Counted from the stretch's first letter, positions 14,651 to 62,757 are shown. The stretch is 64,000 nt of DNA from a virus (IMGVR_UViG_3300021519_000006:1-64000); one strand, 5' to 3'. Notes: a model not told the origin generated them from the sequence alone. Translations and numbers: made by a program.

Positions 14651-14872
14651 TTATTCCTCTTCTGAAGGGGTAAACTTGCCTGTTACTGGATCATAAGACG
14701 CACCTACATATGCGTTATTAGCAACGTCGTCTACTAGATCAGTTACGTCAAGAATTAAAGGCTCACTTAAAAATATAGCGGCTAAACGATTATCGGTATG
14801 CAGGATATCAACAACTTTGCCATCCAACACAAACGCTACCTTGATAGGTGGTAGCTCTTGGTTATTTGTCAT
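14651..14872 (-). CDS. Hypothetical protein
   Basis: Start at MTNNQ with GGAGG RBS and TAATG overlap. Confidence 0.7.
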   Translation of the reverse strand: MTNNQELPPIKVAFVLDGKVVDILHTDNRLAAIFLSEPLILDVTDLVDDVANNAYVGASYDPVTGKFTPSEEE

Positions 14873-35964: not shown

Positions 35965-37548
35965 TTAAAAAAATGGCGAGGCGCTTACCTCAACCGTTGG
36001 CATAACCATATCCTGGGTTAGAGAACATGCAATGGCTAAAGAGTCCACAAAGTCATCGTGAGCGTGAGCTTCATCCGGGGCAGCTACTAAGAAATTAGGC
36101 CCTTTGTATTGAACCTCTGCGTCAGTCATTTGCTGGAAAAACTTCTTCCAAAGACGAAGTCGTCTGGTTTTAGCGTGAGCTGGCCAGGAAACCATTTGTC
36201 GTTGAATTAGGGATTGCAAGTGCTTCCACCGCTTAGATTGTTCTGAAGGGCTGGAGGTAATGGCGATAACTTCTGCTCTAGGCATTAGAACCTTTAGGCG
36301 ACCAGCTACAGCATCACCAACTCCGTTAGAGTCAACTCCTATAGCAAGTACGTCATAGTTACTCAAGAAGTTAACAATTTGGAAGTATTGCTCTTCCCAG
36401 TCATCTCCCTGAATTTCTAACCAGTTTAAAACTCTATGATCGTAATAACCAAACTCATCCGGCCTATCCCAGTCAACCCACACAACAGTTACAACTGTAG
36501 AATCGATCTTACGAGCGGGGTCAACACCAACTACAACTGGAGAGCGATGCCAGCTTTTTACAATTTCTTGGGATGTATCACCTAGTTCTTCCATAATAGA
36601 AGAAGTAACAAACATACCGCGTTCTAGCAACCACTTGCAGTTATAGGAAAGTTGGAACTCATCTGAGTCCTCTCCAATACGAAGCATTTCTTTTCTAATG
36701 AACTTCTCATAGTTAGGGTTGAACTTGGCTACGTCACGCCAATCCCATTGGAAGTGGTTCTGACGTTTTCCACGTTCAGTCTGTCTACGCTTGTTTAGTT
36801 GAATAGCCCTATAAAAGTTGTTCTTAAAAGTTGTAGGTGTTCCGGTCTTAACAATAGTAGCGTTGTAGTACGCACCCATAGGAGCAATAGACTTTGAAAC
36901 TACAAAGTCATCTGCTTCTTGACACTCATCAATGATAATTAGGTGGAAAGACTTAGATTCGATCTTAGCTCTTGGGTTAGCTGTCATCATCATAAGAGTT
37001 GACCCAGAGTTCTTAAGTTTGATGTTTCGTACAACTCCCGGAGTTTTTGTAGCCATATCGTCAATCTCAGGGTCACCAAGTACTTCTAGCGCTCGCTCTG
37101 AAGTCAATCGTGAAACTGTACGTCCGTACAGTGTTTCTACCTGTGATTGAATAGGTGCAAACATTCCCACCCAAATTCCGTCTCCAAACTTACCTAGAAG
37201 ATCTGGGTACATCTTTGCAAGGCGGGGAAGAATAACCATAAGGGTTGCAACAGTATTTGCAATGGTTTCAGACTTACCCGACTGGCGAGAAGCTAACGCC
37301 GTTACCTCTTCACCGTCGTTAATAATTACAGACTCAATAACTCGTCTTGCTAGAGGTTCTTGGTAGGCGTGAAGTTCGTGACCTACTAGGAGCTTCATAA
37401 ACTCCATAATTTTATCTATCAATGCCAACACAAACTCTTTAGATAGTTCGTCTAGCTGTATCTCAGGGTTTTCGTCAGGCAGTTCTTCCGGGTCTTCGTA
37501 TGCGGGATCTACGTCTAGCTCTTCGTATTGATCCTCTTCATAGCTCAC
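35965..37548 (-). CDS. terL: Terminase large subunit
   Basis: Walker A SRQSGKSE, Walker B LIIIDECQ, TGTP, nuclease GVDPA and HDDFVDS. Confidence 0.96.
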   Translation of the reverse strand: MSYEEDQYEELDVDPAYEDPEELPDENPEIQLDELSKEFVLALIDKIMEFMKLLVGHELHAYQEPLARRVIESVIINDGEEVTALASRQSGKSETIANTVATLMVILPRLAKMYPDLLGKFGDGIWVGMFAPIQSQVETLYGRTVSRLTSERALEVLGDPEIDDMATKTPGVVRNIKLKNSGSTLMMMTANPRAKIESKSFHLIIIDECQEADDFVVSKSIAPMGAYYNATIVKTGTPTTFKNNFYRAIQLNKRRQTERGKRQNHFQWDWRDVAKFNPNYEKFIRKEMLRIGEDSDEFQLSYNCKWLLERGMFVTSSIMEELGDTSQEIVKSWHRSPVVVGVDPARKIDSTVVTVVWVDWDRPDEFGYYDHRVLNWLEIQGDDWEEQYFQIVNFLSNYDVLAIGVDSNGVGDAVAGRLKVLMPRAEVIAITSSPSEQSKRWKHLQSLIQRQMVSWPAHAKTRRLRLWKKFFQQMTDAEVQYKGPNFLVAAPDEAHAHDDFVDSLAIACSLTQDMVMPTVEVSASPFF

Positions 37549-48589: not shown

Positions 48590-48634
48590 GCTGACGCTGG
48601 CGCGCTCGCTGTAGTTCGATTCTACAGGTCAGCA
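48590..48634 (+). ncRNA. Truncated tRNA-like element (acceptor-like stem plus T arm)
   Basis: GCTGAC/GTCAGC stacked on CTGTAG-TTCGATT-CTACAG; no anticodon arm and no CCA. Confidence 0.55.
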
Positions 48635-48687
48635 CGCCGTAAGGCTAGGGGCAGGATAGTCCTGTCCCTATGTTCAAAGGATACTAA

Positions 48688-49191
48688 ATGTCTACATTGA
48701 CACTAAGTATGAAGGAACAACTCGCGCCAGTAGTGGCTATCGAGTTGGCAGTTCTCAACGAGGGTGCTACAGCCTTCGGGATAGGCAAGGCGAAGGGTAT
48801 CTTCAAGACCTACGCTGATGCGACCTTTTATGATGTGTATGACCACATCACAAAGCAATCAGCCTCAACAGCAACCGCTGTTCTGTCTGGTCTCATCTCA
48901 GCACGCTACAACGTGCCTATCTCGTTCCTCGTACCTATGCAAGACGACCTTGCCGAGGTATGGAGCACGTTCGACGCCACAACAGGCGACACCGAAGTTA
49001 TGTTCGGTCGTCTGGTAGCACTCAAGGCTCGTCTCAAGGACGAGCGTGAGACAGCAGAAGCATCTGCTATTGCAGATGGTTCACTAGCGTCATCAAAGAC
49101 CGTGACGCTAGTCAAGTCCCTTGGTAATCTCAAGACCAAGGGTGTTACATTCACCGAAGAGGAAAAGGCTGCGATTATCGCTGCCTTGTAA
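48688..49191 (+). CDS. First gene of the plus-strand arm, helical hypothetical protein
   Basis: AAAGGA RBS; 167 aa; codon choice like highly expressed genes. Confidence 0.85.
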   Translation: MSTLTLSMKEQLAPVVAIELAVLNEGATAFGIGKAKGIFKTYADATFYDVYDHITKQSASTATAVLSGLISARYNVPISFLVPMQDDLAEVWSTFDATTGDTEVMFGRLVALKARLKDERETAEASAIADGSLASSKTVTLVKSLGNLKTKGVTFTEEEKAAIIAAL

Positions 49192-49194
49192 TCG

Positions 49195-49458
49195 GTAATG
49201 GGTAGTGGCGGGGGCTCTATGTCCCCGCCTCTATCTATGTCCATAGACATCTGTGGGCATAGATAGGGAGCAACTATCCCTATGGTAAGGGGAATCCGAA
49301 TCAACTCGGTACGCAGGTGTATGGAAGTGAGGAGATGGTCAAACATCTCGCAGTAAAACTCCAACTGTTACACCGCCCCCGTAAGAGAAAGAATCTCGTG
49401 TCTTCTGTCGAAGAGACCCTAGTCAGCCCTTCAGCTAGTACTGGCTAGGGTCTCTTTT
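49195..49458 (+). ncRNA. Candidate structured RNA ending in a terminator hairpin
   Basis: Multiple stems whose deviations are G-U on the plus strand; closing GTAATGG/CTGTTAC. Confidence 0.6.
49411..49458 (+). terminator. Intrinsic terminator
   Basis: AAGAGACCCTAGTCAG/CTGGCTAGGGTCTCTT then TT. Confidence 0.7.
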
Positions 49459-49594
49459 CACATCCAAGCATAACTCTCATCATAGATAGATAACTCTCAT
49501 CATAGTTAGTTAGGCTACTACAAATCTCACAAGTTGAGACACCGAGAGTACAAGCAGGTCTGGGCTAGGGTGGGACTGCTGTTAGCAGATAGTC

Positions 49595-49718
49595 GGTGGA
49601 AGATACATAGTGGGGAGAATACTCCTGTAGTTACTAGATACCACCATGGGCTCTATGCCTGTAAATGGGTGGCAAGTATGGAATACCACTATGTATCTCT
49701 CACTCTCTATCTGAGAGT
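49595..49718 (+). ncRNA. Stem-clamped RNA cassette A
   Basis: GGTGGAAGATACATAGTGG (49595-49613) pairs with CCACTATGTATCTCTCACT (49686-49704). Confidence 0.7.
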
Positions 49719-49733
49719 AGAAGGAGGACTGAT

Positions 49734-50159
49734 ATGGGATCACCTATCAGACTTGAGTTCAACTGTTCTGAGTGCAAAGCAGATAACACCTTGCATTCCG
49801 GATGTACTCCTCGCATCAACGAGGACCGTATGGATTGGATTCCATTCGAAGTGGATTACAGATTCACATTCAGATGTACTGAGTGTGAGTTACCTAATCT
49901 ATTCCAAGGCACAAAGGAGTCAGGCTTTACCCCCGTGCCAACACAAACAAACCCCGCCGTAGTGCACGCTGTTCTTATCTTAGGCTGGCGTTACGGAGAG
50001 CCTGTACAACGTCTCTTTGGTATCTATCAAGACATAGAGATAGCCCATGCATCTGCTACCACGTGGATCAAGCGTAACCCCGGCAAGTATGCAGATGATG
50101 AAAAGAACGATGATGGTGAAAATGCAACATTCTACATTAGAGAGATGCCCCTACTATGA
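49734..50159 (+). CDS. Zn-ribbon hypothetical protein
   Basis: AAGGAGG RBS then ATG 49734; CSEC and CTEC. Confidence 0.75.
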   Translation: MGSPIRLEFNCSECKADNTLHSGCTPRINEDRMDWIPFEVDYRFTFRCTECELPNLFQGTKESGFTPVPTQTNPAVVHAVLILGWRYGEPVQRLFGIYQDIEIAHASATTWIKRNPGKYADDEKNDDGENATFYIREMPLL

Positions 50160-50170
50160 AAGGAGAAGTA

Positions 50171-50422
50171 ATGTCAGACGAACTTATTACCCTCAAAATC
50201 GGTATATTCGATTTTACTGTGATTACGGATGCACTCACTGATTGTGATTGTCTAAGTAAGGAATGTAAACGTCTTATCAGTAATTTCCAAGCGCAGAAAG
50301 AAGGAGAAGCAGTAAATACCTGCTTTGGATGTAAGAATGCGGTCACTGTTGCTGAGGCTATCTATTATGAGACTTATCGTCTTTGTCCAAAGTGTTACAA
50401 GTATTGGGACCCCACGCCATGA
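50171..50422 (+). CDS. Zn-finger hypothetical protein
   Basis: AAGGAG RBS before MSDEL; CFGC...CPKC. Confidence 0.7.
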   Translation: MSDELITLKIGIFDFTVITDALTDCDCLSKECKRLISNFQAQKEGEAVNTCFGCKNAVTVAEAIYYETYRLCPKCYKYWDPTP

Positions 50423-50526
50423 CAATACTTGATTACTTAGACCCAATGCAATCAGGTCTGCCTATCACTCTTATGTGGCTATCTATCTCTGCATCTATCT
50501 GTTATCTCCTCTTTAGTAAGAAGTAA
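50419..50526 (+). CDS. Small membrane peptide (35 aa)
   Basis: Not in track; ATGA overlap; hydrophobic stretch ending SKK. Confidence 0.55.
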   Translation: MTILDYLDPMQSGLPITLMWLSISASICYLLFSKK

Positions 50527-50565
50527 TACACCAAAAGGACCCCGCGAAATTTTACCGTGTGAAGT

Positions 50566-50773
50566 GGTGGAAGGCACATAGATGGTGGACCTATACCGTG
50601 AGGTGGCTAACTTAGTTGATGCTATTCAAGGTGTTGGAAGGAACCAATAACGGATTAATTTCTGGACGGTTGCCGACCCATTACTCTCCACAGTTCCCGC
50701 TGTAACAGTAGTGCCTTTGGAATGCCCATTACTAAGACTATCTATGTGTCTCTCACTCTCCACAAGGAGAGTG
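50566..50773 (+). ncRNA. Stem-clamped RNA cassette B
   Basis: GGTGGAAGGCACATAGATGGT (50566-50586) pairs with ACTATCTATGTGTCTCTCACT (50737-50757). Confidence 0.72.
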
Positions 50774-50791
50774 CTATACAAGGAGGACAAA

Positions 50792-50971
50792 GTGTCATCC
50801 GACACAAACAACACACCCGACTGGGAATACATCAAGAAGCAAGGGATGCGAGTCAATAAGCATCTTCATAACCACTATAACGACCTAATGCACCGAGCAG
50901 CCTGCGACATCTGTATGGCCTTCTTCATCGGTGAAAATTATGGCAAGTTGACTGAGGAGGAAAAACAATGA
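50792..50971 (+). CDS. Small hypothetical protein
   Basis: AAGGAGG RBS then GTG 50792; His-rich, CDIC. Confidence 0.7.
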   Translation: MSSDTNNTPDWEYIKKQGMRVNKHLHNHYNDLMHRAACDICMAFFIGENYGKLTEEEKQ

Positions 50972-51138
50972 GAGGTTATCTATTCAGATCGTTGATTGCG
51001 CTAGTTGCACCTAACTACGCTCTTGACAAGGATAACTATGGGCAGATTATCATCTACACCCATAAGAAAGAAGTTGATGATGATCGGTATGTAGAGATGG
51101 TCTCTGCAGACTTTGGAATATATGACAAGGAGGACTAA
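50968..51138 (+). CDS. Small hypothetical protein (56 aa)
   Basis: Not in track; GAGGAGG RBS, coupled at both ends. Confidence 0.65.
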   Translation: MRGYLFRSLIALVAPNYALDKDNYGQIIIYTHKKEVDDDRYVEMVSADFGIYDKED

Positions 51139-51380
51139 TGCCTGACGACGTAACAGTTATCAGCGTAGGCACACACATCGAGTCCAATGGAGGAGATGTT
51201 CTAGCTTGTAAGCCGGGCAGTTACCGAAATACAACTATTGTCCTGTGTTACTTACCACAGAACAAAGTAACCCCTTTCGTTGTACACACATACAACGAGA
51301 CTCAAGGTATCTGCTTTCGAGGTCAATATGGTTTCACACTTGAAGAAGCAATAACCGACTACAAGAACAGGAGAACATAG
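51138..51380 (+). CDS. Hypothetical protein
   Basis: AAGGAGG RBS. Confidence 0.75.
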   Translation: MPDDVTVISVGTHIESNGGDVLACKPGSYRNTTIVLCYLPQNKVTPFVVHTYNETQGICFRGQYGFTLEEAITDYKNRRT

Positions 51381-51610
51381 TGTCCAACACAAACCCCCGC
51401 GCAGCACACATCTATAACCCCGAAGACGGTGGCACTAACATGGAAATTGTCATCAGCCCCGATACTTGGTGGCACGCCGTCTGTAACGATGACATCAGGC
51501 TGACCAACAAGGAATACAACGAGCTAGACGATAGTGAAGTGGACTTGTGCCATCCCTGCGTCAAGAAAGCCAAGGAGGATGATCCCGATGGCTTTATCTA
51601 CAATCTATAA
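51380..51610 (+). CDS. Hypothetical, Cys/His Zn-binding pattern
   Basis: AGGAG RBS; H...C...CHPC. Confidence 0.7.
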   Translation: MSNTNPRAAHIYNPEDGGTNMEIVISPDTWWHAVCNDDIRLTNKEYNELDDSEVDLCHPCVKKAKEDDPDGFIYNL

Positions 51611-51714
51611 AACCTGTACAACAACAATCACTACAACAACCACAATAACAACAAAAACAACCCGCATTGTGCACGGAATTACCGTGCCTGTGCACATCCT
51701 AGAAGGGAATACGA

Positions 51715-52230
51715 ATGGCAACATCTATGAATACGCTCACAGTAAGACGAGTTGATCTATTAGAGCAACTCGAAGAGCGTTACACATACATGACCCAAGA
51801 AAAGGTAAAGTATGAGAAAGCTGTGGAAAAGTTCCACGCTTTGACTAAGAAATATGATGCAGACTTAGAGAAGTGGGAAGCACGTGTGCCCACACTACTA
51901 GAAGGTATGGTTAGAGGGTCTGACATAGACTACTCACATAACACAGAGAGATACGGCAGATACCAGTGGAATCGTGAAACTTGGAATGCAAGCATTAGTG
52001 TATCTCTCAACCGCGATGAAGTAACACGACTAATAGGGCCAGAGCCTACAAGACCAGAGGCTCCTGATACCCCCGAATTTTTACAACAGCGTAGATTAAC
52101 TAGAGGTTATTCTGCTCCTCCAGCCCCATCATTATACGAAGCTGTATACCAAGCCATTGCAATCCTTAGTATTTCTAATGATGATGATGTTAAAGCTCAG
52201 ATGTTCAACGACGTAATGTTGGCACTCTAA
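51715..52230 (+). CDS. Coiled-coil hypothetical protein (paralog of 53363-53797)
   Basis: GAAGGGA RBS; shared layout and QAIAIL/NAIALI C-terminal motif. Confidence 0.8.
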   Translation: MATSMNTLTVRRVDLLEQLEERYTYMTQEKVKYEKAVEKFHALTKKYDADLEKWEARVPTLLEGMVRGSDIDYSHNTERYGRYQWNRETWNASISVSLNRDEVTRLIGPEPTRPEAPDTPEFLQQRRLTRGYSAPPAPSLYEAVYQAIAILSISNDDDVKAQMFNDVMLAL

Positions 52231-52451
52231 TGAAACTATTCTGTGATTACATCAACGATAAACAAGAAGCACGGTTCCAAGAGCACCTCACAGTGTGTGA
52301 TGATCCCCAACACAAACAATCCACCATCCACATCCACCGCCTGATAGTAGACATATTCGACACGGACCGCATCAAATACCCACGATGGCAATACTGGATC
52401 GATAGCATCCTCGTATTCCTTAGATTGGACGGAACCAATGGAAAATATTAA
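52230..52451 (+). CDS. Hypothetical protein
   Basis: TAATG-coupled. Confidence 0.6.
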   Translation: MKLFCDYINDKQEARFQEHLTVCDDPQHKQSTIHIHRLIVDIFDTDRIKYPRWQYWIDSILVFLRLDGTNGKY

Positions 52452-52908
52452 AACACACATAGTTGAGTGTTCACGATGTCAAGCGCCCCAAGTATTCAGG
52501 AACGCACCGGGGTACATGGACTCAGACATACCAGTAGCACTGGAACTATCCCTAGATGGTGGCTACGCAATGTTCGTAGACAATATCTACTACGTTGGTG
52601 ACAAGAACCCATTGGAGTTCATGCTCTGTCACAAATGTGCCCACGAATTTACACAGTTTATGAACATACCCGAGACAACAGTAACTAGTTGGCATCCTAA
52701 AACAGATGATGCTTTCTGTAATGGTTGGACAATGCTAGGAAGCATGGAACGTGAGTTAGAGGTATTCAAACAAAAGCTTTACGATCTTGTATACATCAAC
52801 GAACACACGATGATAGTGCCGTTTGATGACTACGCACATAAAAAAGCACAGTTAGAAGAACTAATCCAACTACAAGAAGAAAGGATCAAAGAATGTACAT
52901 CGAACTAG
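52438..52908 (+). CDS. Zn-finger hypothetical protein
   Basis: CSRC...GGYAMFVD...LCHKCAH. Confidence 0.75.
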   Translation: MENIKTHIVECSRCQAPQVFRNAPGYMDSDIPVALELSLDGGYAMFVDNIYYVGDKNPLEFMLCHKCAHEFTQFMNIPETTVTSWHPKTDDAFCNGWTMLGSMERELEVFKQKLYDLVYINEHTMIVPFDDYAHKKAQLEELIQLQEERIKECTSN

Positions 52909-52985
52909 ATATGTCTAGCGCAACAACTATGACAATAGTTCTAGCCATCGTTGTTGTAGTTATTGTATTCATACGACGTAAGTAA
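52893..52985 (+). CDS. Small membrane peptide (30 aa)
   Basis: Not in track; AAGGA RBS; MYIELDMSSATTMTIVLAIVVVVIVFIRRK. Confidence 0.6.
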   Translation: MYIELDMSSATTMTIVLAIVVVVIVFIRRK

Positions 52986-52990
52986 TCGTA

Positions 52991-53275
52991 TTGATAGGGC
53001 AGAAGACATACGCATACAGGCTGTTATTACATAGAGGCCTAGGAATTTAGTGGATGAGTTACGAGTCTGCTATTTTTACTAGACGGAATTGGTAGCACCA
53101 ATGAGCGAACGACTGTAGTGCCAGAGATACCCTGCGGGCTTGCGAAAACCTATTACAGTACCTCGGTTGAATTTGGGGGATACCCCAAGTTAGTTGTACG
53201 AGTGCAAGAAGGCGCTTGTGAAAGGAGTCTCGTCGTAATTCGACAGTAGTATGCGTATGTCCTCTGTCTTATCAA
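52991..53275 (+). ncRNA. Stem-clamped RNA cassette C (285 nt)
   Basis: 27 bp terminal stem 52991-53017/53249-53275 plus at least five internal stems. Confidence 0.78.
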
Positions 53276-53362
53276 CAGAGAAAGGAGATAAGACAGCACC
53301 AACACAAACAAACACCCCCACAGCCGTGCTGGGTGTCCCGTACCAATAGAGAAAGGGTTACC

Positions 53363-53797
53363 ATGGCAGCAACCAAGGTAATTGCAACAACTTGGGATAA
53401 AGCACATTTACTCAAGAAGCTAAATGACACACTCAAGCGTATGGACGCAGAAATAGTTGCATGGGAAAAAGATAATGCAACTCTTGAAAAGCGTCAAGAA
53501 GCATGGGAGAAAAAAGCAGTTGCTTGGGCTCTTAAAAACATGCCCAAATCAAAAGATACAGACGCAAGTATGTATCACAACCGATTCCAATTGAACATCT
53601 CGTTTGATCTTCAATTGGCTACGGATGCTTTAGGTGAACGTCCTACTCAAGAACGTAAACCACAATACAAAGAAGGTCATTACTCTGAACTTAATGATTA
53701 TGACCAAATTGAAAATGCTATTGCTTTGATTGAAGGCTCAACTGACACTGAGTTTAAAATCAATACCACATCAGTGTGGGCATCTTTCATTCGATAA
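53363..53797 (+). CDS. Coiled-coil hypothetical protein (paralog of 51715-52230)
   Basis: GAAAGGG RBS before ATG 53363. Confidence 0.8.
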   Translation: MAATKVIATTWDKAHLLKKLNDTLKRMDAEIVAWEKDNATLEKRQEAWEKKAVAWALKNMPKSKDTDASMYHNRFQLNISFDLQLATDALGERPTQERKPQYKEGHYSELNDYDQIENAIALIEGSTDTEFKINTTSVWASFIR

Positions 53798-53909
53798 CGC
53801 TTAACGCGGTTGGTTTCTATAGTTCTTCCTGAGGTAAAAGAACTCCTCACCTAAGCATGTGAAGGATAAACTGCTTACCAACACAAACACTCACAAAGGA
53901 CAACAAACT

Positions 53910-54128
53910 ATGCTACAAACCTTTGGTAAATACATTCGAGACAAGTATGGAAACTTCGTGTGGAAAGAAACACAGGTTAAACCTCCGTCATTAGATAACT
54001 CAACAGCAAAATTACTATTCATTGTAGAAGCACAGCTGTTTCACGGCTGTACCCGCAAAGAAGCAATGATGCTGTGGGAAGACGGCATCGATACTCTATA
54101 CAACACAATAAGTGAGGAGGAACTATGA
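53910..54128 (+). CDS. Hypothetical protein
   Basis: AAAGGA RBS before MLQTF. Confidence 0.65.
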   Translation: MLQTFGKYIRDKYGNFVWKETQVKPPSLDNSTAKLLFIVEAQLFHGCTRKEAMMLWEDGIDTLYNTISEEEL

Positions 54129-54262
54129 AACTATGGTTACTGATCGGACTAACAACTAACATCATCTCTATTTGGACTGCGCTGTATTGGCGTGAACGAT
54201 ATTGGGATGCAGAGCGTATGCGAATGTATCTTCGCAAGTTAGATGCACGAAATGTTAAATAG
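54125..54262 (+). CDS. Small membrane peptide (45 aa)
   Basis: Not in track; GAGGAGG RBS; MKLWLLIGLTTNIISIWTALYW... Confidence 0.6.
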   Translation: MKLWLLIGLTTNIISIWTALYWRERYWDAERMRMYLRKLDARNVK

Positions 54263-54602
54263 TCTCAACAACCTATCTACATACAATCCAGACAACTTCA
54301 AGTGGCAAGATAATGCAGCGTGCAAAGACTTGCCCGTAAGTATGTTCTACTACGATCACAATGAACGTGGTCCCGACAGAGATTACAGGGAGCGTACCGC
54401 GCTTGCTGTATGCAATACCTGCCCAGTCAAGGCAGTGTGTCTACAAGACGCAATTGACAGAAACGATACACACTCTATACAGGGTGGAACTACTCCAGTG
54501 ATGCGTGGGCACAAGCTTCGTAGTGTGCCTGAGTATCCTATTGAAGTAGTTAGAGTAGAAATGGAGGAAACAAATGCGACTACGACATCGCAAACTAGCT
54601 AA
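54243..54602 (+). CDS. whiB: WhiB-family Fe-S transcription factor
   Basis: WQDNAAC...F...A.AVCNTCPVKAVCL...IQGGTTP; four Cys. Confidence 0.92.
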   Translation: MHEMLNSLNNLSTYNPDNFKWQDNAACKDLPVSMFYYDHNERGPDRDYRERTALAVCNTCPVKAVCLQDAIDRNDTHSIQGGTTPVMRGHKLRSVPEYPIEVVRVEMEETNATTTSQTS

Positions 54603-54879
54603 GCTCATAGAACGCAAGATGGTTGAGGAAGAAATTGAACTCAATGATCTAGAATCACAGCACAGTCGTGCATACCATACTGGTGTAATTGATGGATTAG
54701 GTCAAGCCCTATTCCTTATTGCACCGGAACGTGCACGACGCAATCCAATCAGCATCGTATGGTTTGATGAAGACTACGATGTGCCCCAACACAAACAATC
54801 ACGCCTACAAGAAATCGACAGAGAACAAAGTTTCGACGTCAACCATTCAGCTCTGTTTGACACATCCGAGGCACGTTAA
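54574..54879 (+). CDS. Hypothetical protein
   Basis: GGAGG RBS. Confidence 0.7.
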   Translation: MRLRHRKLAKLIERKMVEEEIELNDLESQHSRAYHTGVIDGLGQALFLIAPERARRNPISIVWFDEDYDVPQHKQSRLQEIDREQSFDVNHSALFDTSEAR

Positions 54880-55571
54880 TGCGTGTCTATGACTATGTCA
54901 CAGGTGAGTTATGGCTCAAAGGTGGACAAAAGAAAATAGAACGACCCCTATATACACGCGGTGCTAGGCTATTTCAACGAGCCGATCACATTGCCGTAGC
55001 CCTTGGTTGGGCTCAATCATACGATGTGGTGTTGTTTTACCCAGATGGCACCACAACTATTCAATGTCAAGCCAATGGTCATTGGAATCCTTTATGGAGT
55101 CAAGGAGTTAGAGCAATTATCCGTGACTTCTCAGGCTTACACGACGTACATCAACGTAAGAATAAATGGTACATAGTGGAAGCCAATCCATCACGCACGC
55201 CACCAAAGATTCAAGGTTGCAGAATGTGCAAACGCACAGGTTTGGTAGACGTACAGTGTTGGGGTCCGCGCAGTTGTTACAACAGCATACCGTGCGAAGA
55301 CCATCCCACAGCAGTACTCGACCCTAAGAACCCTCACGCAAGATGGCATGAAGCAGAACAATGTGAGCACAATAAAACTGCTAGGCACATGATGTACAGA
55401 GCAGATAAGTGTTATTCCTGTAGCGGTATGGGAATGCGCGACTACGGTAGTAAATTAGTTTCTCTTCAATGGGATGGTTTCCCAGTCCGATTGAGAGAAG
55501 GCAAGGTAATAAAGCAAGAACCAACCGAACTAGAGAAGAGGATAGCAAACTATGTCAAACCCAACAGTTGA
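54879..55571 (+). CDS. Hypothetical with DnaJ-like Zn-finger motifs
   Basis: CRMCKRTG and CYSCSGMG. Confidence 0.75.
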   Translation: MRVYDYVTGELWLKGGQKKIERPLYTRGARLFQRADHIAVALGWAQSYDVVLFYPDGTTTIQCQANGHWNPLWSQGVRAIIRDFSGLHDVHQRKNKWYIVEANPSRTPPKIQGCRMCKRTGLVDVQCWGPRSCYNSIPCEDHPTAVLDPKNPHARWHEAEQCEHNKTARHMMYRADKCYSCSGMGMRDYGSKLVSLQWDGFPVRLREGKVIKQEPTELEKRIANYVKPNS

Positions 55572-56058
55572 GTATGACAGTTCAGCAACAATAAACACAG
55601 GAGCCACAGCAGAACAACCAGTAACAGCACGAAGAATACTGAGTAGCGGTGGTATCCCTGAGAACTTAGTAACAACTTCAAGAGCTAGTAAAAACTACAG
55701 AGATGCCGTGTTAGCAGACCTATTACTTAATGTTGAACCTGGGCAACCAACTTCAACAATTGTTTTAGATACATTGCGAACTGCAGTCCGAGCATCACAA
55801 GATGGAAGCATTGACTTGCAGGTATACACCGAGTATCTTGCAGCTTTAGCCTTTGCTTGGGGTGACAAAGAACTAGCTGCCGTTACGATCATGCGTAGTA
55901 AGCCTGAGTATGCTGCAGTATCAACCCATACTATGAGCATTGTATCTGCCATAACTAAACAGATGCCTAGCCCATTTTACTTAAGCTTGCTGGTATCGCA
56001 AGGGCCAGCAGCTTCAGACGCATGGTTACAAGAACAGTCTTCCCACTTCCCTAACTAA
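55552..56058 (+). CDS. DUF4192-like helical protein
   Basis: RDAVL...LAALAFAWGD..LA pattern. Confidence 0.55.
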   Translation: MSNPTVEYDSSATINTGATAEQPVTARRILSSGGIPENLVTTSRASKNYRDAVLADLLLNVEPGQPTSTIVLDTLRTAVRASQDGSIDLQVYTEYLAALAFAWGDKELAAVTIMRSKPEYAAVSTHTMSIVSAITKQMPSPFYLSLLVSQGPAASDAWLQEQSSHFPN

Positions 56059-56351
56059 CGCCAACACAAACAAACCAGCCTATTAGACGGTCAGCGGGAG
56101 CCATTTATGACGAAAACTGCCTTCCTAAGAACTGGTATGTCGTTGGTAAATGCTGCAGAACACAGAGAAGTAGTCTGCAACATACTTGATCAAACCCAAG
56201 CCGGAAACAAGACGGCACCAGCACGCGTGGATGGTTAAACGGGACCAGTTAGTCTCACCAACCGCCACCTGCCAGTCGGACCTGAGTCGCCCGTAGTTGC
56301 TAATGCATCCAGTCCCTGTACCACTTCCTACGTAATGTGTTCAACTCAGCC

Positions 56352-56389
56352 CCTAGAGGGCACGTCATATTGGCGTGCTCTCTAGGTTT
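56352..56389 (+). terminator. Long hairpin (terminator or processing site)
   Basis: CCTAGAGGGCACGTCA-TAT-TGGCGTGCTCTCTAGG then TTT. Confidence 0.6.
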
Positions 56390-56416
56390 ACCTACTACAA
56401 CAAAGGAGATAGACAT

Positions 56417-56671
56417 ATGTGTGAAGCATGTGAGAACAACGACGATGAAGACTTCTCATCACAAGATTTTAATTTTAATAGTCTTAATGATGAAGAAAAA
56501 GAAGAGTTCTTTGAGTACCTCAGTAAGCAGATGAACCTCGTAATAAATAAAGCCGAATCACACGGCGTGTTGTTTGACCTAATTACGGAGTGGCCTCGAG
56601 GCAAGGTAGTAGCATTCGAGATGGCTACCGTATTAGAGAACCGCGTCTTAAATGACGACGATGAGGAGTAA
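56417..56671 (+). CDS. Acidic hypothetical protein
   Basis: AAAGGAG RBS before MCEACE. Confidence 0.75.
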   Translation: MCEACENNDDEDFSSQDFNFNSLNDEEKEEFFEYLSKQMNLVINKAESHGVLFDLITEWPRGKVVAFEMATVLENRVLNDDDEE

Positions 56672-56768
56672 CTAAGTTTCCTCTGCGCAAGCAGAGGGAT
56701 GCTACCGATAGTCGGTAGTAGTTGTCGCAAGACAACAACGATTCCAATACCTAGAAGGGGTAAGTTAT

Positions 56769-58208
56769 ATGGATATCGCAATATTCACAGAGTCATACAC
56801 ACCAAGCATGGGGGCTAAGCGCCGTCAGGTGCTAATAACTCCGCATGGTGACGATGTACGCATCTACTCACGTGAGACAGATGGGACCAAGGGTCCCCAC
56901 AATAAGTGGGAAGAAACAGACTTCGATGGTCTCACTGGACAGATTGACAGCGACGAGCAACTCACTCGTACGCCTGTTGCTGTGTACGTTACAGCGACAG
57001 ATGAAGAAGCTATGACTGCTAAGGGCTATTCCCCAGTACTCGGCACCAAAGCATGTCAAGCACATACCAAGGCTGCACTCAACGTAGATCCAAGTTCATT
57101 CTTGGAACGTGTGTGCGAGTTGTATGAGCAAGTTACATCGCAAGATGTAGCGTTGAGTGAGTACATCATCGACAACCGTCGTGGTTCTGGTTCTACTGTG
57201 CCTTTGGTAACTATGCCAACACAAACAACTCCAGCCCCACAACTAAACCAACACGTATTAGATAAGTTTGAAATTAAAATGGAATCTAATACTAACAACG
57301 GTTCGGTTATCATGGCGTCACTAGCATCAGTGCCACGCATTGAGCTAGCCAAGCGCTATGTTCATCGTAAAGTCTTCGAAGTAGAAGACTTCAAGGTGTT
57401 CGATCATGCTCGTGCCAACAACATCAACGTACTTATTTACGGCCCTACTGGTCCAGGTAAGACAACGTCTGTTGAAGCATGGGCTGCTGAGCGTGGCCTA
57501 CGTATGGCTACCGTATCTGGTAATGCTTCTATGGAGCCAAGCCAGATGACTGGTAAGTTCGTATCCGATGGCAACGGTTCGTTTGCATGGATTGATGGCC
57601 CTGTTACTGACGTAGTCCGTAACGGTGGTGTCTTGCTTCTTGATGAGGTTAATTTCATCAGTCCTAAAATCTATACCGTCTTGTATTCCCTACTTGACGG
57701 ACGTCGCATGATTACATTGCTTGATCATCATGGCGAGACTATTGAGGCGCACAAAGACCTCACTATCTTCGCAACTATGAATCCGGATTACATCGGCACA
57801 ACGTCGTTGAACTTCGCATTCCGCAATCGCTTCGACATCCAAATCCCTTGGGATTACGATGACAAGGTTGAAGAGAAATTAGTTTCATCTAAGTCTCTTC
57901 GTGTCTTAGCGAAGCAATTACGTACTGAAGCAGCCAAGGGTCAGTACGAGACTCCAATCTCAACCAATATGTTGATGGAGTTCCACCATTTCGTAGACGC
58001 ATTGGGTTATGAGTTCGCAGTTGAGAACTTCATCGCTCACTTCTCTACGGATGAACAGCCAAGCGTTCGCTTGGTGTTTCAGACACACGAATACAATATC
58101 AAAGGTGACTTTGGTATTGAGATTCCTATGCCTGAACAAGCAGCAGAAGGACAGTCAATTGAAGAGAAGTTGACTGAGTGGGCTGGCAATCTTGCCGGTC
58201 AAGTATAA
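56769..58208 (+). CDS. MoxR/CbbQ/CobS-type AAA+ ATPase
   Basis: GPTGPGKT, WIDGP, LLLDEVN, ATMNP, AFRNRF. Confidence 0.93.
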   Translation: MDIAIFTESYTPSMGAKRRQVLITPHGDDVRIYSRETDGTKGPHNKWEETDFDGLTGQIDSDEQLTRTPVAVYVTATDEEAMTAKGYSPVLGTKACQAHTKAALNVDPSSFLERVCELYEQVTSQDVALSEYIIDNRRGSGSTVPLVTMPTQTTPAPQLNQHVLDKFEIKMESNTNNGSVIMASLASVPRIELAKRYVHRKVFEVEDFKVFDHARANNINVLIYGPTGPGKTTSVEAWAAERGLRMATVSGNASMEPSQMTGKFVSDGNGSFAWIDGPVTDVVRNGGVLLLDEVNFISPKIYTVLYSLLDGRRMITLLDHHGETIEAHKDLTIFATMNPDYIGTTSLNFAFRNRFDIQIPWDYDDKVEEKLVSSKSLRVLAKQLRTEAAKGQYETPISTNMLMEFHHFVDALGYEFAVENFIAHFSTDEQPSVRLVFQTHEYNIKGDFGIEIPMPEQAAEGQSIEEKLTEWAGNLAGQV

Positions 58209-58220
58209 GAAAGGTAAACC

Positions 58221-60152
58221 ATGTATAACGAAGAGTTAGACGATGGTTATCGTTACAGGGAAGCCAGAGATGAAGAAGCACAAGAACGTGCTGTCCGACT
58301 CAATGCACTGTGCCGTGTTTACGAACAAGGTGACCGTGTATTAACTGGCGACCCAGTCATCGTAAATGTGATGCCGGATGGCCCCGCACCAGCGTGGTCA
58401 GACGGTGCCGCTATCTACATCAATCTTGATCAGATTGAGGACATGGACCTTGAGACATTAACTCAAGTTACTGGCCTCAACTATCATGAGTTAAGCCATC
58501 ACTTGTACTCGCCCCGTAAGGGAACGACGTTCATGCAATGGGTTATAGAAAATGGTCAGATTCAAGCTACAAATATTCTCGAAGATCAACGTATCGAAAC
58601 ATTATTTGTAGCACGCTATCCAGCTGTTGCTTCATACCTTACAGCCATGGTTTCTAGGTGGTTAGGTAAAGATGAAGATGGCATGCATGGTAACTACATC
58701 TGTATACGCGGACGTCGTTACCTACCTGTTGAGATTCGTCAAGCGTTCCGTGATGAGTTCGCTTTCCCAGATGTAATCCCAGCAGCTATTGACATCATCG
58801 ATCAGTATCGTCTCTTAGCATTTCCTCGTGACTATGACAAGGGCAAGGAACTGATTGAGCGATTCACCAATGAGGTACTGATTCCTATGGGCATCAAAGA
58901 TGACCACACACATCAGGGTGGTCCCAATGGTTGCGGTCAACGCATGCCCGTAAGTAAGGGTCGACCTGAGCCCGGCAAAGCTCAAGAGAAAGACTCTGAT
59001 CGTGCCAAGGGTATGGGTACAGCAGAAGCTCCGTGGTATCCAAAACCTAAGCAAGCTCCAACACAAACACCCACCAACGACGCCGATAAACCAATTGGCA
59101 GCAATGATGATGGTGATGGTGATGGTGATGGTGATGATCCATATAGCAAACCGTTACAACCTATTACTACAGAACAAGCACTAGATATACGCGACAAGGG
59201 TGTAGACCATACGCCAGCGTCTACCGCAGGTTCTGGTCACGTTGATAGTCTCGGCGGTATTCCTAAGAATATCAATGACATGCTCAACGATGCTATTGAT
59301 AATGTCCTTGCACGCAAGGATGTTCAAGCAGACATCAAAGCCAAGCAGAAAGTTATTGTTGGTGGAGATGGTAAGCATGATGACATTACTAAGAAGGGTA
59401 AGTTCGACAAGACTTCCGTTCCCAACGAATCCATCATTGCATACCGCAAATTCGCTCAAGAGTTACAACGTTTACGCGATGACATGGAACCTACGTGGGA
59501 TAAAGAAACACCCACCGGTAGGCTTAATGTTCAACGTGTTATCCGAGGCTGTGAGATTGATGCAGCCTTCGATCGTTGGGATGAGGGCGACGATGGATGT
59601 GATATTGAGGCCGTCATCCTAGTGGATCGATCAGGATCAATGTCCAGTCAACAGAACGATAAGAAGGCTTCCATCGCCTGCTGGACTATCAAGCGTGCTC
59701 TTGAGTCAATTCAAGCGCCCGTTACTGTCTATGCCTTTGATGACGCAGCTGAGGTTGCTTACTCCCGCAAAGAGTTAGCAGACAAGACTCAGTACAAGTT
59801 CATCTACGGCAACGGCGGTACTGAACCATACCCAACACTGTTAGTTGCAGAGCAGTTACTTATGTCTTCTCGCAAGAAGAACAAAATGCTGTTCATGGTA
59901 ACTGATGGTGTGTTCGACTCCCAGAAAAATGATGTAATTATTGAGCGTATCGGTAAGCGTGGCATTCTCACAGCCATGACGCTGATTATGACTGACAGTG
60001 ATTACAAATACTATGTGGATGATCGAGGTCAAGATCCAAAGCAATTCCATCATAATGCTGAGGTTTTTGCTCGTATCAACAATGCCAGTGACTTACTGCC
60101 GTTTGCTAAGCAAGTAGTTACATCCGCAATCAAAAAGCGTGGAAGACGCTAA
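58221..60152 (+). CDS. vWA (CobT-like) partner with N-terminal HExxH motif
   Basis: HELSH, NILEDQRIE, MIDAS DRSGSMS, GGT, TDG. Confidence 0.9.
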   Translation: MYNEELDDGYRYREARDEEAQERAVRLNALCRVYEQGDRVLTGDPVIVNVMPDGPAPAWSDGAAIYINLDQIEDMDLETLTQVTGLNYHELSHHLYSPRKGTTFMQWVIENGQIQATNILEDQRIETLFVARYPAVASYLTAMVSRWLGKDEDGMHGNYICIRGRRYLPVEIRQAFRDEFAFPDVIPAAIDIIDQYRLLAFPRDYDKGKELIERFTNEVLIPMGIKDDHTHQGGPNGCGQRMPVSKGRPEPGKAQEKDSDRAKGMGTAEAPWYPKPKQAPTQTPTNDADKPIGSNDDGDGDGDGDDPYSKPLQPITTEQALDIRDKGVDHTPASTAGSGHVDSLGGIPKNINDMLNDAIDNVLARKDVQADIKAKQKVIVGGDGKHDDITKKGKFDKTSVPNESIIAYRKFAQELQRLRDDMEPTWDKETPTGRLNVQRVIRGCEIDAAFDRWDEGDDGCDIEAVILVDRSGSMSSQQNDKKASIACWTIKRALESIQAPVTVYAFDDAAEVAYSRKELADKTQYKFIYGNGGTEPYPTLLVAEQLLMSSRKKNKMLFMVTDGVFDSQKNDVIIERIGKRGILTAMTLIMTDSDYKYYVDDRGQDPKQFHHNAEVFARINNASDLLPFAKQVVTSAIKKRGRR

Positions 60153-60183
60153 CCAACACAAACAAAGACAAAGGAGCAACAAA

Positions 60184-60375
60184 ATGTACGTTATATTCGA
60201 TAGCTTAACAGAAACACTTATAGGCCCGTTCAATGATGAGGAAAGCGCAAGCATGTTCTTGCTATATGCCTCCGACGAATTGGCAGATGGTGGTGTAAAC
60301 CTATCCGTTGAGTGCGTATCTGAGCCAGCTGAATGGGCCCAAGATAACGCCCCCGCACTAATGGCGTCGTTGTAA
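60184..60375 (+). CDS. Hypothetical protein
   Basis: AAGGAG RBS before MYVIFD. Confidence 0.7.
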   Translation: MYVIFDSLTETLIGPFNDEESASMFLLYASDELADGGVNLSVECVSEPAEWAQDNAPALMASL

Positions 60376-60527
60376 TGAGTAAGCAAGAGCTAAAGTACAG
60401 CGAAGAACTCTTGCGCATAGATATGGAACGTCTTGCTCAAGACAGAGTAAAAGCAAAAGCCTTATTAATCTCAAAAGGTGCCGACGATGTCTTAGAGATG
60501 TTAGGGCTGCAAGACGATGAGTTGTAG
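60375..60527 (+). CDS. Small hypothetical protein (50 aa)
   Basis: Not in track; TAATG-coupled; MSKQELKYSEELLRID... Confidence 0.6.
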   Translation: MSKQELKYSEELLRIDMERLAQDRVKAKALLISKGADDVLEMLGLQDDEL

Positions 60528-60708
60528 TCATTGCGGCTCCCCCATCTACGGCAAGTTTATAGAACTTCGCGTAGACAATGGTCTTAGGATTATTGAGTTT
60601 CACGATAACCCTAAGGAATGTTACATCAAAGAAGTTAGATACAAACGTAGCTTTGACAAAGCTATACGACAAGAAATTGTGCTCAACGGTGGGTACATGG
60701 AAGACTAG
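60517..60708 (+). CDS. Small Zn-finger-like protein
   Basis: CSHCG...FH...C. Confidence 0.6.
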   Translation: MSCSHCGSPIYGKFIELRVDNGLRIIEFHDNPKECYIKEVRYKRSFDKAIRQEIVLNGGYMED

Positions 60709-60721
60709 AGGAGGAAACAAA

Positions 60722-61198
60722 ATGACAACAATAACTAGGAGAGAAGCGTGCGAATTAGTACGTGAATCTATTGGTAAAGAACAATTGCTTGAGGAAGACG
60801 TCAAGCGTATTATCTATGCTGTTAATAATGACCTACAAGTAAGAGATTTCTTAATGGGCATACCTATGCATTATTCAATGGTGGAATGCGCCACACTATT
60901 AAAGAACATAGTTGCTGTAGCGGATCCGCAAGAAGCGGTACCCTTTGCAGCAGTCCTTGCTGCGTACGCATATGAAATGGATGATCATCAAACTGTTAAA
61001 GACTCTATTTCATTCTCTATAAGTGTTAATCCTACATATTCATTAACTCTCTTGTTAATGAGAGTAATAGCATCTGGTTGGCCTAAAGAAGCCTTTAAAA
61101 AGATGCGTGAAGAACTTCACCTTAAGGTTATGGCATCCTGCTATAGCCCAGAAGGTGATGAAGCTATCCCACTACAAAGTAAGGAGGAAAACAAATGA
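60722..61198 (+). CDS. DUF4192-like protein
   Basis: GAGGAGG RBS before MTTIT; VRDFLM...LAAYAY...NPTYSLTLLL. Confidence 0.7.
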   Translation: MTTITRREACELVRESIGKEQLLEEDVKRIIYAVNNDLQVRDFLMGIPMHYSMVECATLLKNIVAVADPQEAVPFAAVLAAYAYEMDDHQTVKDSISFSISVNPTYSLTLLLMRVIASGWPKEAFKKMREELHLKVMASCYSPEGDEAIPLQSKEENK

Positions 61199-61356
61199 AA
61201 GGCGGTATATCACTAGCAGACATGCAAGAACTCAACGATCTTATGAATCAATTCAATACATTTGAAGAGACTAAAGAAGCAGTTGAGTCTCGCTTCCCCG
61301 GCATCACAGCTATACGTACGGAAACCGGAATCTCTATAACATCAGAGGAGGAATAA
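61195..61356 (+). CDS. Small hypothetical protein (53 aa)
   Basis: Not in track; AAGGAGG RBS; coupled at both ends. Confidence 0.65.
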   Translation: MKGGISLADMQELNDLMNQFNTFEETKEAVESRFPGITAIRTETGISITSEEE

Positions 61357-61580
61357 TGTCAACAATGTGCGAAGAATGCAGGTGCACAGTGTTTGGTGAC
61401 GAAGCATGTGGCAATGGGTGTGGGTGTTGCGGAGGAGGTCCAAATACTGTAATCTGGAAATCCGTCGTAACAAAAGAAATGGTCGAGGGTTGGAGTGACG
61501 ATGAGATTGAAATGCTCGTTACAGACCTAGACGATGCCGTCATGGCAACGTTACAAGACTATGAAGGACACGACCACTAA
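61356..61580 (+). CDS. Cys-rich/acidic small protein
   Basis: CEECRC...CGNGCGCC; GGAGG RBS. Confidence 0.7.
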   Translation: MSTMCEECRCTVFGDEACGNGCGCCGGGPNTVIWKSVVTKEMVEGWSDDEIEMLVTDLDDAVMATLQDYEGHDH

Positions 61581-61609
61581 CCCACCAACACAAACAAGAT
61601 CGGAGCACT

Positions 61610-61801
61610 ATGGCAGACGATCTAATCTATAAGGTTCGCATTGTGTACGAAGTGAGCCTAGCCAAATGGCGTATAGACGAAGATGATAACGACTGGTGTC
61701 TATGGGTCTTTGACAGGAATTTAGGAGAGTGGATCCCCACCAATAAACTAAATAGACCTGGCGAAGATGTAGAAATTGTAGACATCAAGTTTATAAAGTA
61801 A
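61610..61801 (+). CDS. Hypothetical protein
   Basis: GGAG RBS. Confidence 0.7.
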   Translation: MADDLIYKVRIVYEVSLAKWRIDEDDNDWCLWVFDRNLGEWIPTNKLNRPGEDVEIVDIKFIK

Positions 61802-61914
61802 GGGAGGTGAAGCCTCCGGACGCACTCCGGAGGTCTCATCAATGGCGTTAACTCTTAGTTCTAAAAGAGATTACGGCATAAGTATATCCCCTCAAATCAA
61901 AGAAAGGAACAACT

Positions 61915-62172
61915 ATGGCCATATGGGCAGTAGTTAATATAAAACTACGGGATAAACACATACGCAAACTCGTATCAGCACTAGAAGGTGCGGGTCTTGA
62001 GGTATCTATTACACCGGGTAAGAAGCACGTAAGGGTAAGAAACCCTGATACAGGCAAAATAGTCTTCTTCGGTAGCCAATCGTTGGGAGACTTTAGAGCT
62101 GCAAAAAATATCAAACGAGACCTAAAGATGGTAGGGTTTGACCTATCCGAACATGGAATCAAACTAGGATAA
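61915..62172 (+). CDS. HicA-like (dsRBD-fold) protein without a visible antitoxin
   Basis: LVSALEGAGLEV...GKKHVRVRNPD...D.RAAKNIKRDLK..GF. Confidence 0.6.
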   Translation: MAIWAVVNIKLRDKHIRKLVSALEGAGLEVSITPGKKHVRVRNPDTGKIVFFGSQSLGDFRAAKNIKRDLKMVGFDLSEHGIKLG

Positions 62173-62181
62173 GGAAACAAT

Positions 62182-62421
62182 ATGGCAAAAACCAATTACT
62201 TCTTCGCAGTTAAGAAGAACCTAGATAAGGGTGGCGCATGGCTAGCAATTGTTAGCGATGAGATTAACGGCCCTATTCTAAAAGCAGCTGCATTTTCCAG
62301 TGCTGCACCAGCAAAACGTTGGGCAGCTGAACAAATTGATCGTAGTCGTTTACCGTGGGAAGTATCAGAAGACGGTAAATCTATGACAGCAGTTGCGCAA
62401 TTCAAAGAGCCAAAGGAATGA
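62182..62421 (+). CDS. Hypothetical protein
   Basis: AAGGA RBS. Confidence 0.75.
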   Translation: MAKTNYFFAVKKNLDKGGAWLAIVSDEINGPILKAAAFSSAAPAKRWAAEQIDRSRLPWEVSEDGKSMTAVAQFKEPKE

Positions 62422-62528
62422 TTATGGACTTTGAGACAGTGTTGCCAATGAAAACAGTTAACGACATCATTAAAGAAGTTAAAGAAACAAAAGAATGCGA
62501 TTGCGGTAACTGTACGTGTAAATAAAAC

Positions 62529-62562
62529 ATTAAGCCCCTCACCTTGCGGTGGGGGGCTTAAT
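62529..62562. terminator. Terminator between convergent arms
   Basis: ATTAAGCCCCTCACC-TTGC-GGTGGGGGGCTTAAT. Confidence 0.88.
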
Positions 62563-62581
62563 TGTTTGTGTTGGGCGCGGG

Positions 62582-62716
62582 CTAAGCCTCGCTATCTTCA
62601 CTTTCATCTTCTAGGAACATCGACTCGATATCCTCTAGGTCTTCTTCATCCATATTCAACTCTTCAAGGTCATCCTCAAAGTCTTCAAATAGGTCAGGAC
62701 TCAATTCATCTGACAT
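62582..62716 (-). CDS. Extremely acidic peptide (44 aa)
   Basis: Not in track; GGGAG RBS; MSDELSPDLFEDFEDDLEELNMDEEDLEDIESMFLEDESEDSEA. Confidence 0.7.
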   Translation of the reverse strand: MSDELSPDLFEDFEDDLEELNMDEEDLEDIESMFLEDESEDSEA

Positions 62717-62757
62717 GCGTGTCTCCCAGTACTAGTAGGTGTAGAAATCGTACACTA

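Follow-up and report, generated by a model that had tools for sequence, protein, structure and literature searches.

The sequence IMGVR_UViG_3300021519_000006:1-64000, referred to here as the window, makes up the first 64 kb of an IMG/VR phage genome of 99,938 bp, and the element under study is a short repeated sequence, CCAACACAAAC, which was searched as an exact 11-mer and is called the word below; its family consensus is YCAACACAAACAA plus a tail. Nearly all phage genes are encoded on the minus strand, and the open reading frame (ORF) map shows a single long plus-strand block, at 48688..62421, which diverges from the late (structural) module at ~48.5 kb and converges on a ribonucleotide reductase gene at 62.7 kb. 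The block contains ~26 mostly small genes, mostly of no assigned function in Pfam searches, the named ones encoding a WhiB protein, a MoxR-type AAA ATPase, a vWA protein, a DUF4192 protein and a HicA-like product, and it is interrupted by long untranslated stretches of 370-700 nt. It is plausibly an early operon, the "early arm" of the genome. The region from 64 to 100 kb constitutes the replication module, with genes for RecA, a family A polymerase, an SNF2 helicase, a primase and DnaB. Our analysis shows that the word is a real, strongly selected cis-acting signal that has been kept through gene turnover.

The word is the most frequent 9-, 10- and 11-mer of the phage genome. The window contains 17 copies against 0.04 expected from dinucleotide shuffles, and the plus-strand block carries 11 exact copies, against 0.006-0.25 expected under Markov models of orders 0-5 trained on the block itself. 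Because both kinds of model predict far fewer copies, chance and composition are rejected as the source of the count; an earlier reading of the same DNA, made from the sequence alone (the sequence-only reading), had set its case against a composition-aware Markov model, which yields at most 0.25 copies where 11 are found. A one-mismatch scan adds CCGACACAAAC at 50799 and TCAACACAAAC at 25278. The sense strand carries all 12 block copies, 11 of them exact and one a variant; seven are found at gene junctions, i.e., 1-5 nt past a stop, 14-50 nt ahead of a start or on codons 2-5, and five are intragenic, including those in the linkers of the AAA and vWA proteins. Every copy listed by the sequence-only reading, including the inverted copy at 62564-62574 and the sparse late copies, is exact in coordinates and strand, and its reading frames are right as well (PTQT in the 144-aa, AAA and vWA proteins, PQHKQ twice, and MSNTN at a start codon). 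The copies, together with the terminator that closes the block, are as follows.

49938..49950, plus strand: word copy in a 144-aa gene, read as PTQT
50799..50811, plus strand: variant word CCGACACAAAC, right behind a GTG start (MSSDTNN)
51384..51394, plus strand: word copy on codons 2-5 of a 76-aa gene (MSNTN)
52307..52319, plus strand: word copy in a 73-aa gene (PQHKQ)
53299..53311, plus strand: intergenic word copy, right after the hairpin closing a 285-nt untranslated stretch, ~50 nt from the ATG at 53363
53878..53888, plus strand: word copy in a 5' untranslated region, 21 nt ahead of the ATG at 53910
54786..54798, plus strand: word copy in a 101-aa gene (PQHKQ)
56061..56073, plus strand: word copy 3 nt past the stop of a 168-aa gene, opening a 700-nt untranslated stretch
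57216..57228, plus strand: word copy within the hypervariable AAA ATPase linker (PTQT), its position kept in most relatives
59058..59069, plus strand: word copy within the vWA protein linker (PTQT)
60153..60165, plus strand: word copy from the first base past the vWA stop, with the next ATG 29 nt on
61585..61597, plus strand: word copy 5 nt past a stop and 14 nt ahead of the ATG at 61610
62529..62562, no strand assigned: bidirectional terminator hairpin separating the block from the ribonucleotide reductase gene that converges on it
62564..62574, minus strand: inverted word copy beside the convergent terminator, sense to the reductase operon
6904..6914, minus strand: sparse late-module word copy, sense to a 972-aa gene
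25278..25288, minus strand: T-variant copy TCAACACAAAC, sense to a 585-aa gene
41056..41066, minus strand: sparse late-module word copy, sense, in the linker of a 992-aa protein (PTQT)
14824..14834, plus strand: late-module word copy, antisense to its gene
18938..18948, plus strand: late-module word copy, antisense to its gene
37425..37435, plus strand: late-module word copy, antisense to its gene

The word is likewise prominent in relatives, i.e., 56 related loci with AAA proteins 53-97% identical. Nearly all of them have the word as their most frequent 10-mer, with 2-12 copies, always on the sense strand of the block. Three of the 26 block genes (those for the AAA protein, the vWA protein and a 60-aa product) are common to all relatives, and the remaining block genes turn over. 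Grouping by flanking sequence gave ~153 independent site groups with the consensus YCAACACAAACAA, behind which runs a ~10-nt tail that is C-rich (0.32-0.52) and T-poor (0.07-0.15) in deep-coding and junction sites alike. Almost all minor variants are transitions: position 0 is T in 19% of sites, position 6 is T in 8%, and position 2 is G in 3%. ORF-free DNA holds 28% of the 194 distinct sites, as compared with 12% of the sequence being non-coding, and many sites begin 1-9 nt past a stop and finish 12-50 nt ahead of the next start; 56 of the 153 site groups lie deep in coding sequence, and the distance to the next start ranges from 1 to >600 nt. In the AAA linker, the codons CCA ACA CAA ACA are identical in ~20 loci amid hypervariable protein sequence, and in the relative L037 the variant copy CCGACACAAAC is kept in the same linker in a different frame, which argues that selection acts on the nucleic acid and not on the protein, as the sequence-only reading had held. 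A coding artefact is rejected on these grounds, given also that the word occurs in three frames and in intergenic DNA and that its synonymous positions are fixed.

The phage collection contains no near-identical DNA match to the block; by AAA protein, the nearest cultured phages infect Gordonia and Brevibacterium (~48%). Neither the word nor the Arc-like protein described below occurs in Gordonia phage Gray, whose kin (AAA ~48%) also lack the word. A literature search for the word as a string returned unrelated primers only, and papers on freshwater actinophages with whiB name no motif. Phages carrying whiB have been reported as active in Rotsee Lake (PMC10914622). One metatranscriptome has contig pieces of block relatives. 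The runner-up words genome-wide, CCTGTAGGTCC and its kin, occur in minus-strand late genes and are probably collagen-like Gly-X-Y repeats of tail fibre genes, read on the opposite strand.

Gene turnover around a persistent word would also be expected if the word marked cassette borders and offered microhomology through which related phages exchange small genes, whether or not it also regulates, in the manner of the promoter-early stem-loops (PeSLs) of T4-type phages. The block is indeed highly mosaic and the word persists in it; many blastn matches to relatives stop 0-12 nt ahead of a copy, and relatives' contigs switch alignment at copies, although the latter is probably an alignment artefact, and the repeated word seems to have caused mis-anchoring at the contig joints 54786, 56060 and 57209. 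However, in the closest pair, G000/L009, the replaced segments carry copies inside and not at their borders, so that breakpoints fall close to copies without coinciding with them, and conserved copies lie within the conserved AAA and vWA genes. Moreover, recombination needs neither even spacing nor strict polarity, and 11-13 bp is short for homologous exchange. We therefore regard a cassette border as a very unlikely explanation.

The word is distributed by module and oriented by gene direction. Its density is ~1 per kb in the accessory block and ~1 per 8 kb in the late module; the region from 64 to 100 kb of the 99,938-bp genome has no copy, and in the genomes checked the sole copy of the replication module sits at its very 3' end, by the terminator. 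Outside the block, seven whole genomes have ~26 copies sense to genes against 5 antisense. The three antisense late-module copies of the window have no counterpart in the nearest relative, G001, and their function is therefore doubtful. Since the orientation of the word flips with gene direction across modules, its polarity must be tied to transcription or to something co-oriented with it, and not to a single genome-wide direction such as that of packaging or injection. The sequence-only reading had proposed sites that shut off, antiterminate, protect or pull in the first-entering DNA; shut-off or antitermination stays plausible, and the roles in DNA entry, protection and pulling-in do not agree with the flip in orientation.

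A polar DNA signal apart from transcription, whether Chi-like, KOPS-like or serving packaging or injection, was weighed against this distribution, together with the related options of a replication-fork barrier, a priming site and a T5-like site-specific nick. Such a signal would be polar, opposite copies do converge at 61585 (+) and 62564 (-), the complement of the word is G/T-rich like Chi, and the phage encodes RecA, primase and DnaB; a nickase always sparing the template strand would account for the orientation. However, a host Chi or KOPS site, as the sequence-only reading had suggested and for which it had called for a scan of the candidate host, is not supported by the counts: 61 genomes of Nanopelagicaceae, a host family assigned tentatively via a 48% WhiB match, contain 37 word copies and 33 copies of the reversed control, i.e., the chance level, and the contexts of the host copies are random. 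The flip in orientation is unlike one-way packaging or injection, the density differs between modules from ~1 per kb to zero, and known priming and Chi sites are 3-8 nt long. A polar DNA signal of this kind is thus highly improbable.

The copies in the block are also evenly spaced. Gaps in the window's block range from 579 to 1842 bp and are more even than random placement (coefficient of variation (CV) 0.35, P ~4e-4), and the spacing is significantly more even than random in 35 of the 36 relatives with six or more copies (median CV 0.275, mean gaps 1.0-1.6 kb). Because gene content differs between loci and long genes carry internal copies, the constraint is apparently on distance itself.

The inverted copy beyond the block shows the word in a second conserved setting. 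On the minus strand, the order around 62564-62574 is the stop of the upstream gene, a few nucleotides, the word, 3-6 nt, the terminator hairpin and a T tract, and this arrangement is present in nearly all relatives; on the plus strand, the complement of the inverted copy forms the T-rich tail of the block terminator. A second conserved late-module site again reads stop, word, terminator, and another reads hairpin, word, Shine-Dalgarno sequence, start. The folding energy downstream of the word equals that of controls, so that a hairpin is no general companion of the word but is confined to two or three conserved places. The reductase operon of L042 (G008) ends with the word-hairpin unit in duplicate, in tandem at 17699 and 17752 (minus strand), and not with a single one. 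A small subclade (L032, L128 and fragments) is informative here: its block copies read CCRACRTAAAC, with T at position 6, and its terminator-side copy bears the same change. Since both have changed together, the terminator copy belongs to the same system as the block copies, and the concerted change indicates that the reader of the word can co-evolve with it. The word can be parsed into CAAC and AAAC, half-sites in tandem at a distance of 6 bp; in the subclade, these half-sites are fixed and the intervening dinucleotide has changed.

Placement at junctions raises the question of whether the word is a single-element promoter, or a promoter-proximal element, for a host RNA polymerase redirected by the phage, which would divide the block into many small transcription units as T4 early or T7 class II promoters do. 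The sense orientation, the ~1-kb spacing, the positions 12-50 nt ahead of starts and just past the previous stop, the late site with the hairpin-word-Shine-Dalgarno-start order and the presence of two WhiB genes in the phage would all be in keeping with this. However, no conserved -10 or -35 element occurs at a fixed distance from the word; conserved copies stand 3-6 nt ahead of terminator hairpins, past start codons and deep in the AAA and vWA genes; and the 37-kb replication module is devoid of copies. A matching polymerase or sigma factor was not found either: PF00940, for a T7-type polymerase, gave no match, although the control genomes were uninformative for this model, the DxDGD motif is in no large ORF, and no sigma-70 region 2 was detected. 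A 1048-aa protein has no known relatives and gave no protein-atlas lead. A promoter role is, in our view, very unlikely. Direct repeats AACTCTCATCATAG(A/T)T, at 48413, 49472 and 49492 (plus strand), lie ahead of the 167-aa gene and the rest of the block and are better candidates than the word for its promoter or operator. A leader hairpin, CTCTCACTCTC ... GAGAGT, recurs at 49690-49724 and 50750-50791 (plus strand), and also in L009 and L022; it sits just 5' of the Shine-Dalgarno sequence of several cassettes, and in some relatives the word follows it directly.

The reading that we favour, tentatively and at somewhat less than even probability, is that the copies are docking sites for a phage regulator that controls the passage of RNA polymerase, similar to stoperators but outside that system. 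According to this model, the word and its tail would form a cis signal that is read along the direction of transcription as a double-stranded DNA site. Its reader would be one small, highly conserved phage-encoded regulator, a middle-phase product of the site-free replication module, bound every ~1.2 kb; depending on orientation, the bound regulator would stop or throttle RNA polymerase. As an outcome, the fast-changing accessory (probably early) operon would be shut off and read-through at module borders blocked, the mode of action of mycobacteriophage stoperators. We infer the reading at the DNA level, the repressive effect and the identity of the protein.

As to that identity, the replication module encodes the most conserved of the small candidate nucleic-acid-binding proteins. 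The best single candidate, for which the sequence comparisons give weak support, is a 47-aa Arc-like ribbon-helix-helix protein encoded at genome positions 89061-89204 (minus strand), beyond the window, between the SNF2 helicase gene and an Hsp20-like gene. It matches RHH_1 at 17.7 bits, below the cut-off, and then phrog_6506 of PHROGs at E 3e-15; the Pfam Arc model has no match in the genome. All 20 complete relatives encode the protein, which ranks among the genome's most conserved, and relatives of it turn up in over 500 matched IMG/VR stretches. In ~30 genomes that carry the canonical word, the N-terminal arm and beta strand of the protein never depart from PN[ASLK]PK-TPTRTIRV; the arm deviates solely in the clade that contains the variant word CCRACRTAAAC. 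Further candidate readers, similarly conserved, are a SpoVS (Alba-like) protein (79307-79627, minus strand), which is the third most conserved protein, a second WhiB (82111-82452, minus strand) and a 105-aa protein (82453-82770), all three encoded in the replication module, beyond the window. Of the binders suggested by the sequence-only reading, namely the 167-aa protein, the KTSC protein and the WhiB of the block, none could be tied to the word, and the 167-aa protein and block WhiB are not conserved in motif-bearing relatives. The KTSC-domain protein (47830-48279, minus strand, E 2e-8) and a protein with a proteasome-subunit-like C-terminus (47230-47796, minus strand) are products of the first genes of the leftward module.

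A number of observations weigh against regulator docking of this kind. A sequence search of the whole genome (E <= 10) found no homologue of L5 gp71, a repressor with an HTH and a Stoperator domain. No tyrosine integrase was found, in a search that did not extend to serine recombinases and ParAB, and the phage is probably virulent. The strand-switch and promoter region at 48280-49900 contains no copy with up to one mismatch, and hence no operator. For the Arc-like candidate, G008 combines the deviant arm with a canonical word, L032 has a different word with an unchanged beta strand, the association of protein and word amounts to about one evolutionary event, and the gene lies >25 kb from the array. 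The rest of the contrary evidence comes from the word itself: its core consists of A and C only, which is more natural for single-stranded RNA; the C-rich, T-poor tail in coding and junction sites and the frequent position of the word just 5' of a Shine-Dalgarno sequence or a terminator stem suit single-stranded RNA better; and its common variants are all transitions, which a reader that pairs with RNA could tolerate.

These features lead to another reading, which we consider possible though clearly short of likely, in which the active form of the word would be single-stranded RNA, or the non-template strand when exposed, providing an unstructured A/C landing site every 1-1.5 kb. It could be read by an RNA-binding protein, from phage or host, by which polymerase stays termination-resistant across the many untranslated stretches, or by a sequence-specific endoribonuclease or translational repressor that silences the messages of the block in the manner of T4 RegB or RegA. 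The strictly sense orientation agrees with either version, as do the A/C-only core, with an opening energy of 1.9 kcal/mol for the sense RNA against 5.9 for the antisense, the composition of the tail at coding and junction sites, and variants that are nearly all C to U or A to G. So do the three recurrent placements (stop, word, Shine-Dalgarno, start; leader hairpin, word, Shine-Dalgarno, start; stop, word, terminator hairpin), the untranslated stretches of 370-700 nt in the block, and the candidate binders among phage proteins, which are SpoVS/Alba-like, KTSC, staphylococcal-nuclease-like and HicA-like.

However, no complementary partner RNA is found in the phage or in host rRNA operons, and neither a NusG paralogue (PF02357, genome, E <= 1) nor an Rfam family (covariance models, 47000-64000, E <= 1) was detected. 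Native flanks are no more accessible than shuffled flanks, no general hairpin follows the word, and an exact 11-13-mer exceeds the specificity of known enhancer, standby or rut sites. Mimicry of a host rrn leader box was also considered and rejected: four Nanopelagicaceae rrn operons contain no copy with up to two mismatches, and the rrn leader of this family has GAGAACUCAACAACGUG, which has only UCAACA in common with the word.

There is a more specific form of RNA-level action, to which we give similarly limited credence: the word would be an operon ruler and not a repressor site, an unstructured A/C-only signal in the RNA or non-template strand that a phage or host factor reads again every ~1.2 kb. 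That factor would either keep polymerase termination-resistant across structured untranslated RNAs or time the sequence-specific destruction of block messages. Selection would then act on the distance from copy to copy, accounting for the copies forced into protein linkers.

Several other features of the phage were noted. The last two block genes, at 61915-62421 (plus strand), resemble a HicA-like (weak Pfam match, E 0.0012) and HicB-N-like (by eye) pair, and a 50-nt, almost pure A/C tract of the ACAACAAC type lies between two genes at 51611-51660 (plus strand). Just past the window, at genome positions 64833-66344 (minus strand), a gene encodes a 503-aa homologue of queuine tRNA-ribosyltransferase (phrog_887, E 1e-56). 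Phage DpdA/TGT-like enzymes insert 7-deazaguanine bases into DNA, and every G of the word duplex is on the antisense strand.

The phage family, which is uncultured, is abundant in lakes, and its probable hosts are dominant freshwater Actinobacteriota. The word offers a handle on the control of a 13-kb block of fast-changing genes in which a set distance is kept through gene turnover. If it is stoperator-like, polar silencing of elongation would be a wider actinophage strategy, carried out with a different protein and beyond the temperate Cluster A mycobacteriophages; action at the RNA level would make it an operon signal of a new, evenly spaced type. The word is also of practical use, as a diagnostic marker of the phage family and its accessory block, and as bait, as DNA or as RNA, to pull down its reader. 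New in this work are the generality of even spacing, the distribution by module, the compositional tail and the variant subclade with its co-varying terminator copy; also new are the host-genome test, the negative tests for several known readers and a first, weak test of the Arc-like candidate.

Comparison with known systems shows partial likenesses. The ops element, read by NusG paralogues of the RfaH type, is likewise a 12-nt word within long transcribed operons, and acts on elongation through the non-template strand only, as the word here would; however, no NusG-like gene is present here, the sequences are dissimilar, and ops occurs once or twice per operon and not each kilobase. Targets of T4 RegB and RegA and T7 RNase III sites are likewise sense signals at early cistron junctions that serve timed shut-off or processing, yet RegB reads GGAG, RegA loose AU-rich sites and RNase III hairpins, and none of these is an exact, unstructured, evenly spaced 12-mer. 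PeSLs resemble the word in being repeated regulatory elements on the borders of small swappable genes, within a hyperplastic early region; each PeSL comprises a sigma-70 promoter and a stem-loop, whereas the word comes with neither a promoter consensus nor a general hairpin. Start-associated sequences (SAS) of Cluster K mycobacteriophages are asymmetric 13-bp words repeated ahead of some genes. An SAS contains the ribosome binding site and keeps a constant, short distance to the start, whereas the distance here is 12 to >50 nt and many copies are deep in genes or by terminators.

The closest known system is that of the stoperators of Cluster A mycobacteriophages, bound by L5 gp71 or the TipsytheTRex repressor. 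In these phages, more than 20 asymmetric 13-mers lie in short intergenic spaces, are oriented with transcription, and lose their function when reversed (PMC9283540). The word has no gp71-type repressor, tyrosine integrase or promoter-region site to go with it, and it differs further in its strikingly even spacing, its sites inside genes at protein linkers, and its A/C-only core with a compositional tail. In addition, its array is concentrated in one 13-kb block, a 37-kb module being site-free, and it belongs to a probably virulent phage of ~100 kb with low-GC freshwater hosts. What the two have in common is an asymmetric site of ~13 bp that recurs at least a dozen times in the genome of an actinobacteriophage, with an orientation tied to transcription, a preference for short intergenic or junction positions, and conservation within clades together with lineage variants. 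Because these features are shared, yet no gp71-family repressor, promoter-region operator or tyrosine integrase was found, the word may work like a stoperator without being one, and the L5 stoperators, to which the sequence-only reading had already likened it, are the best comparison available.

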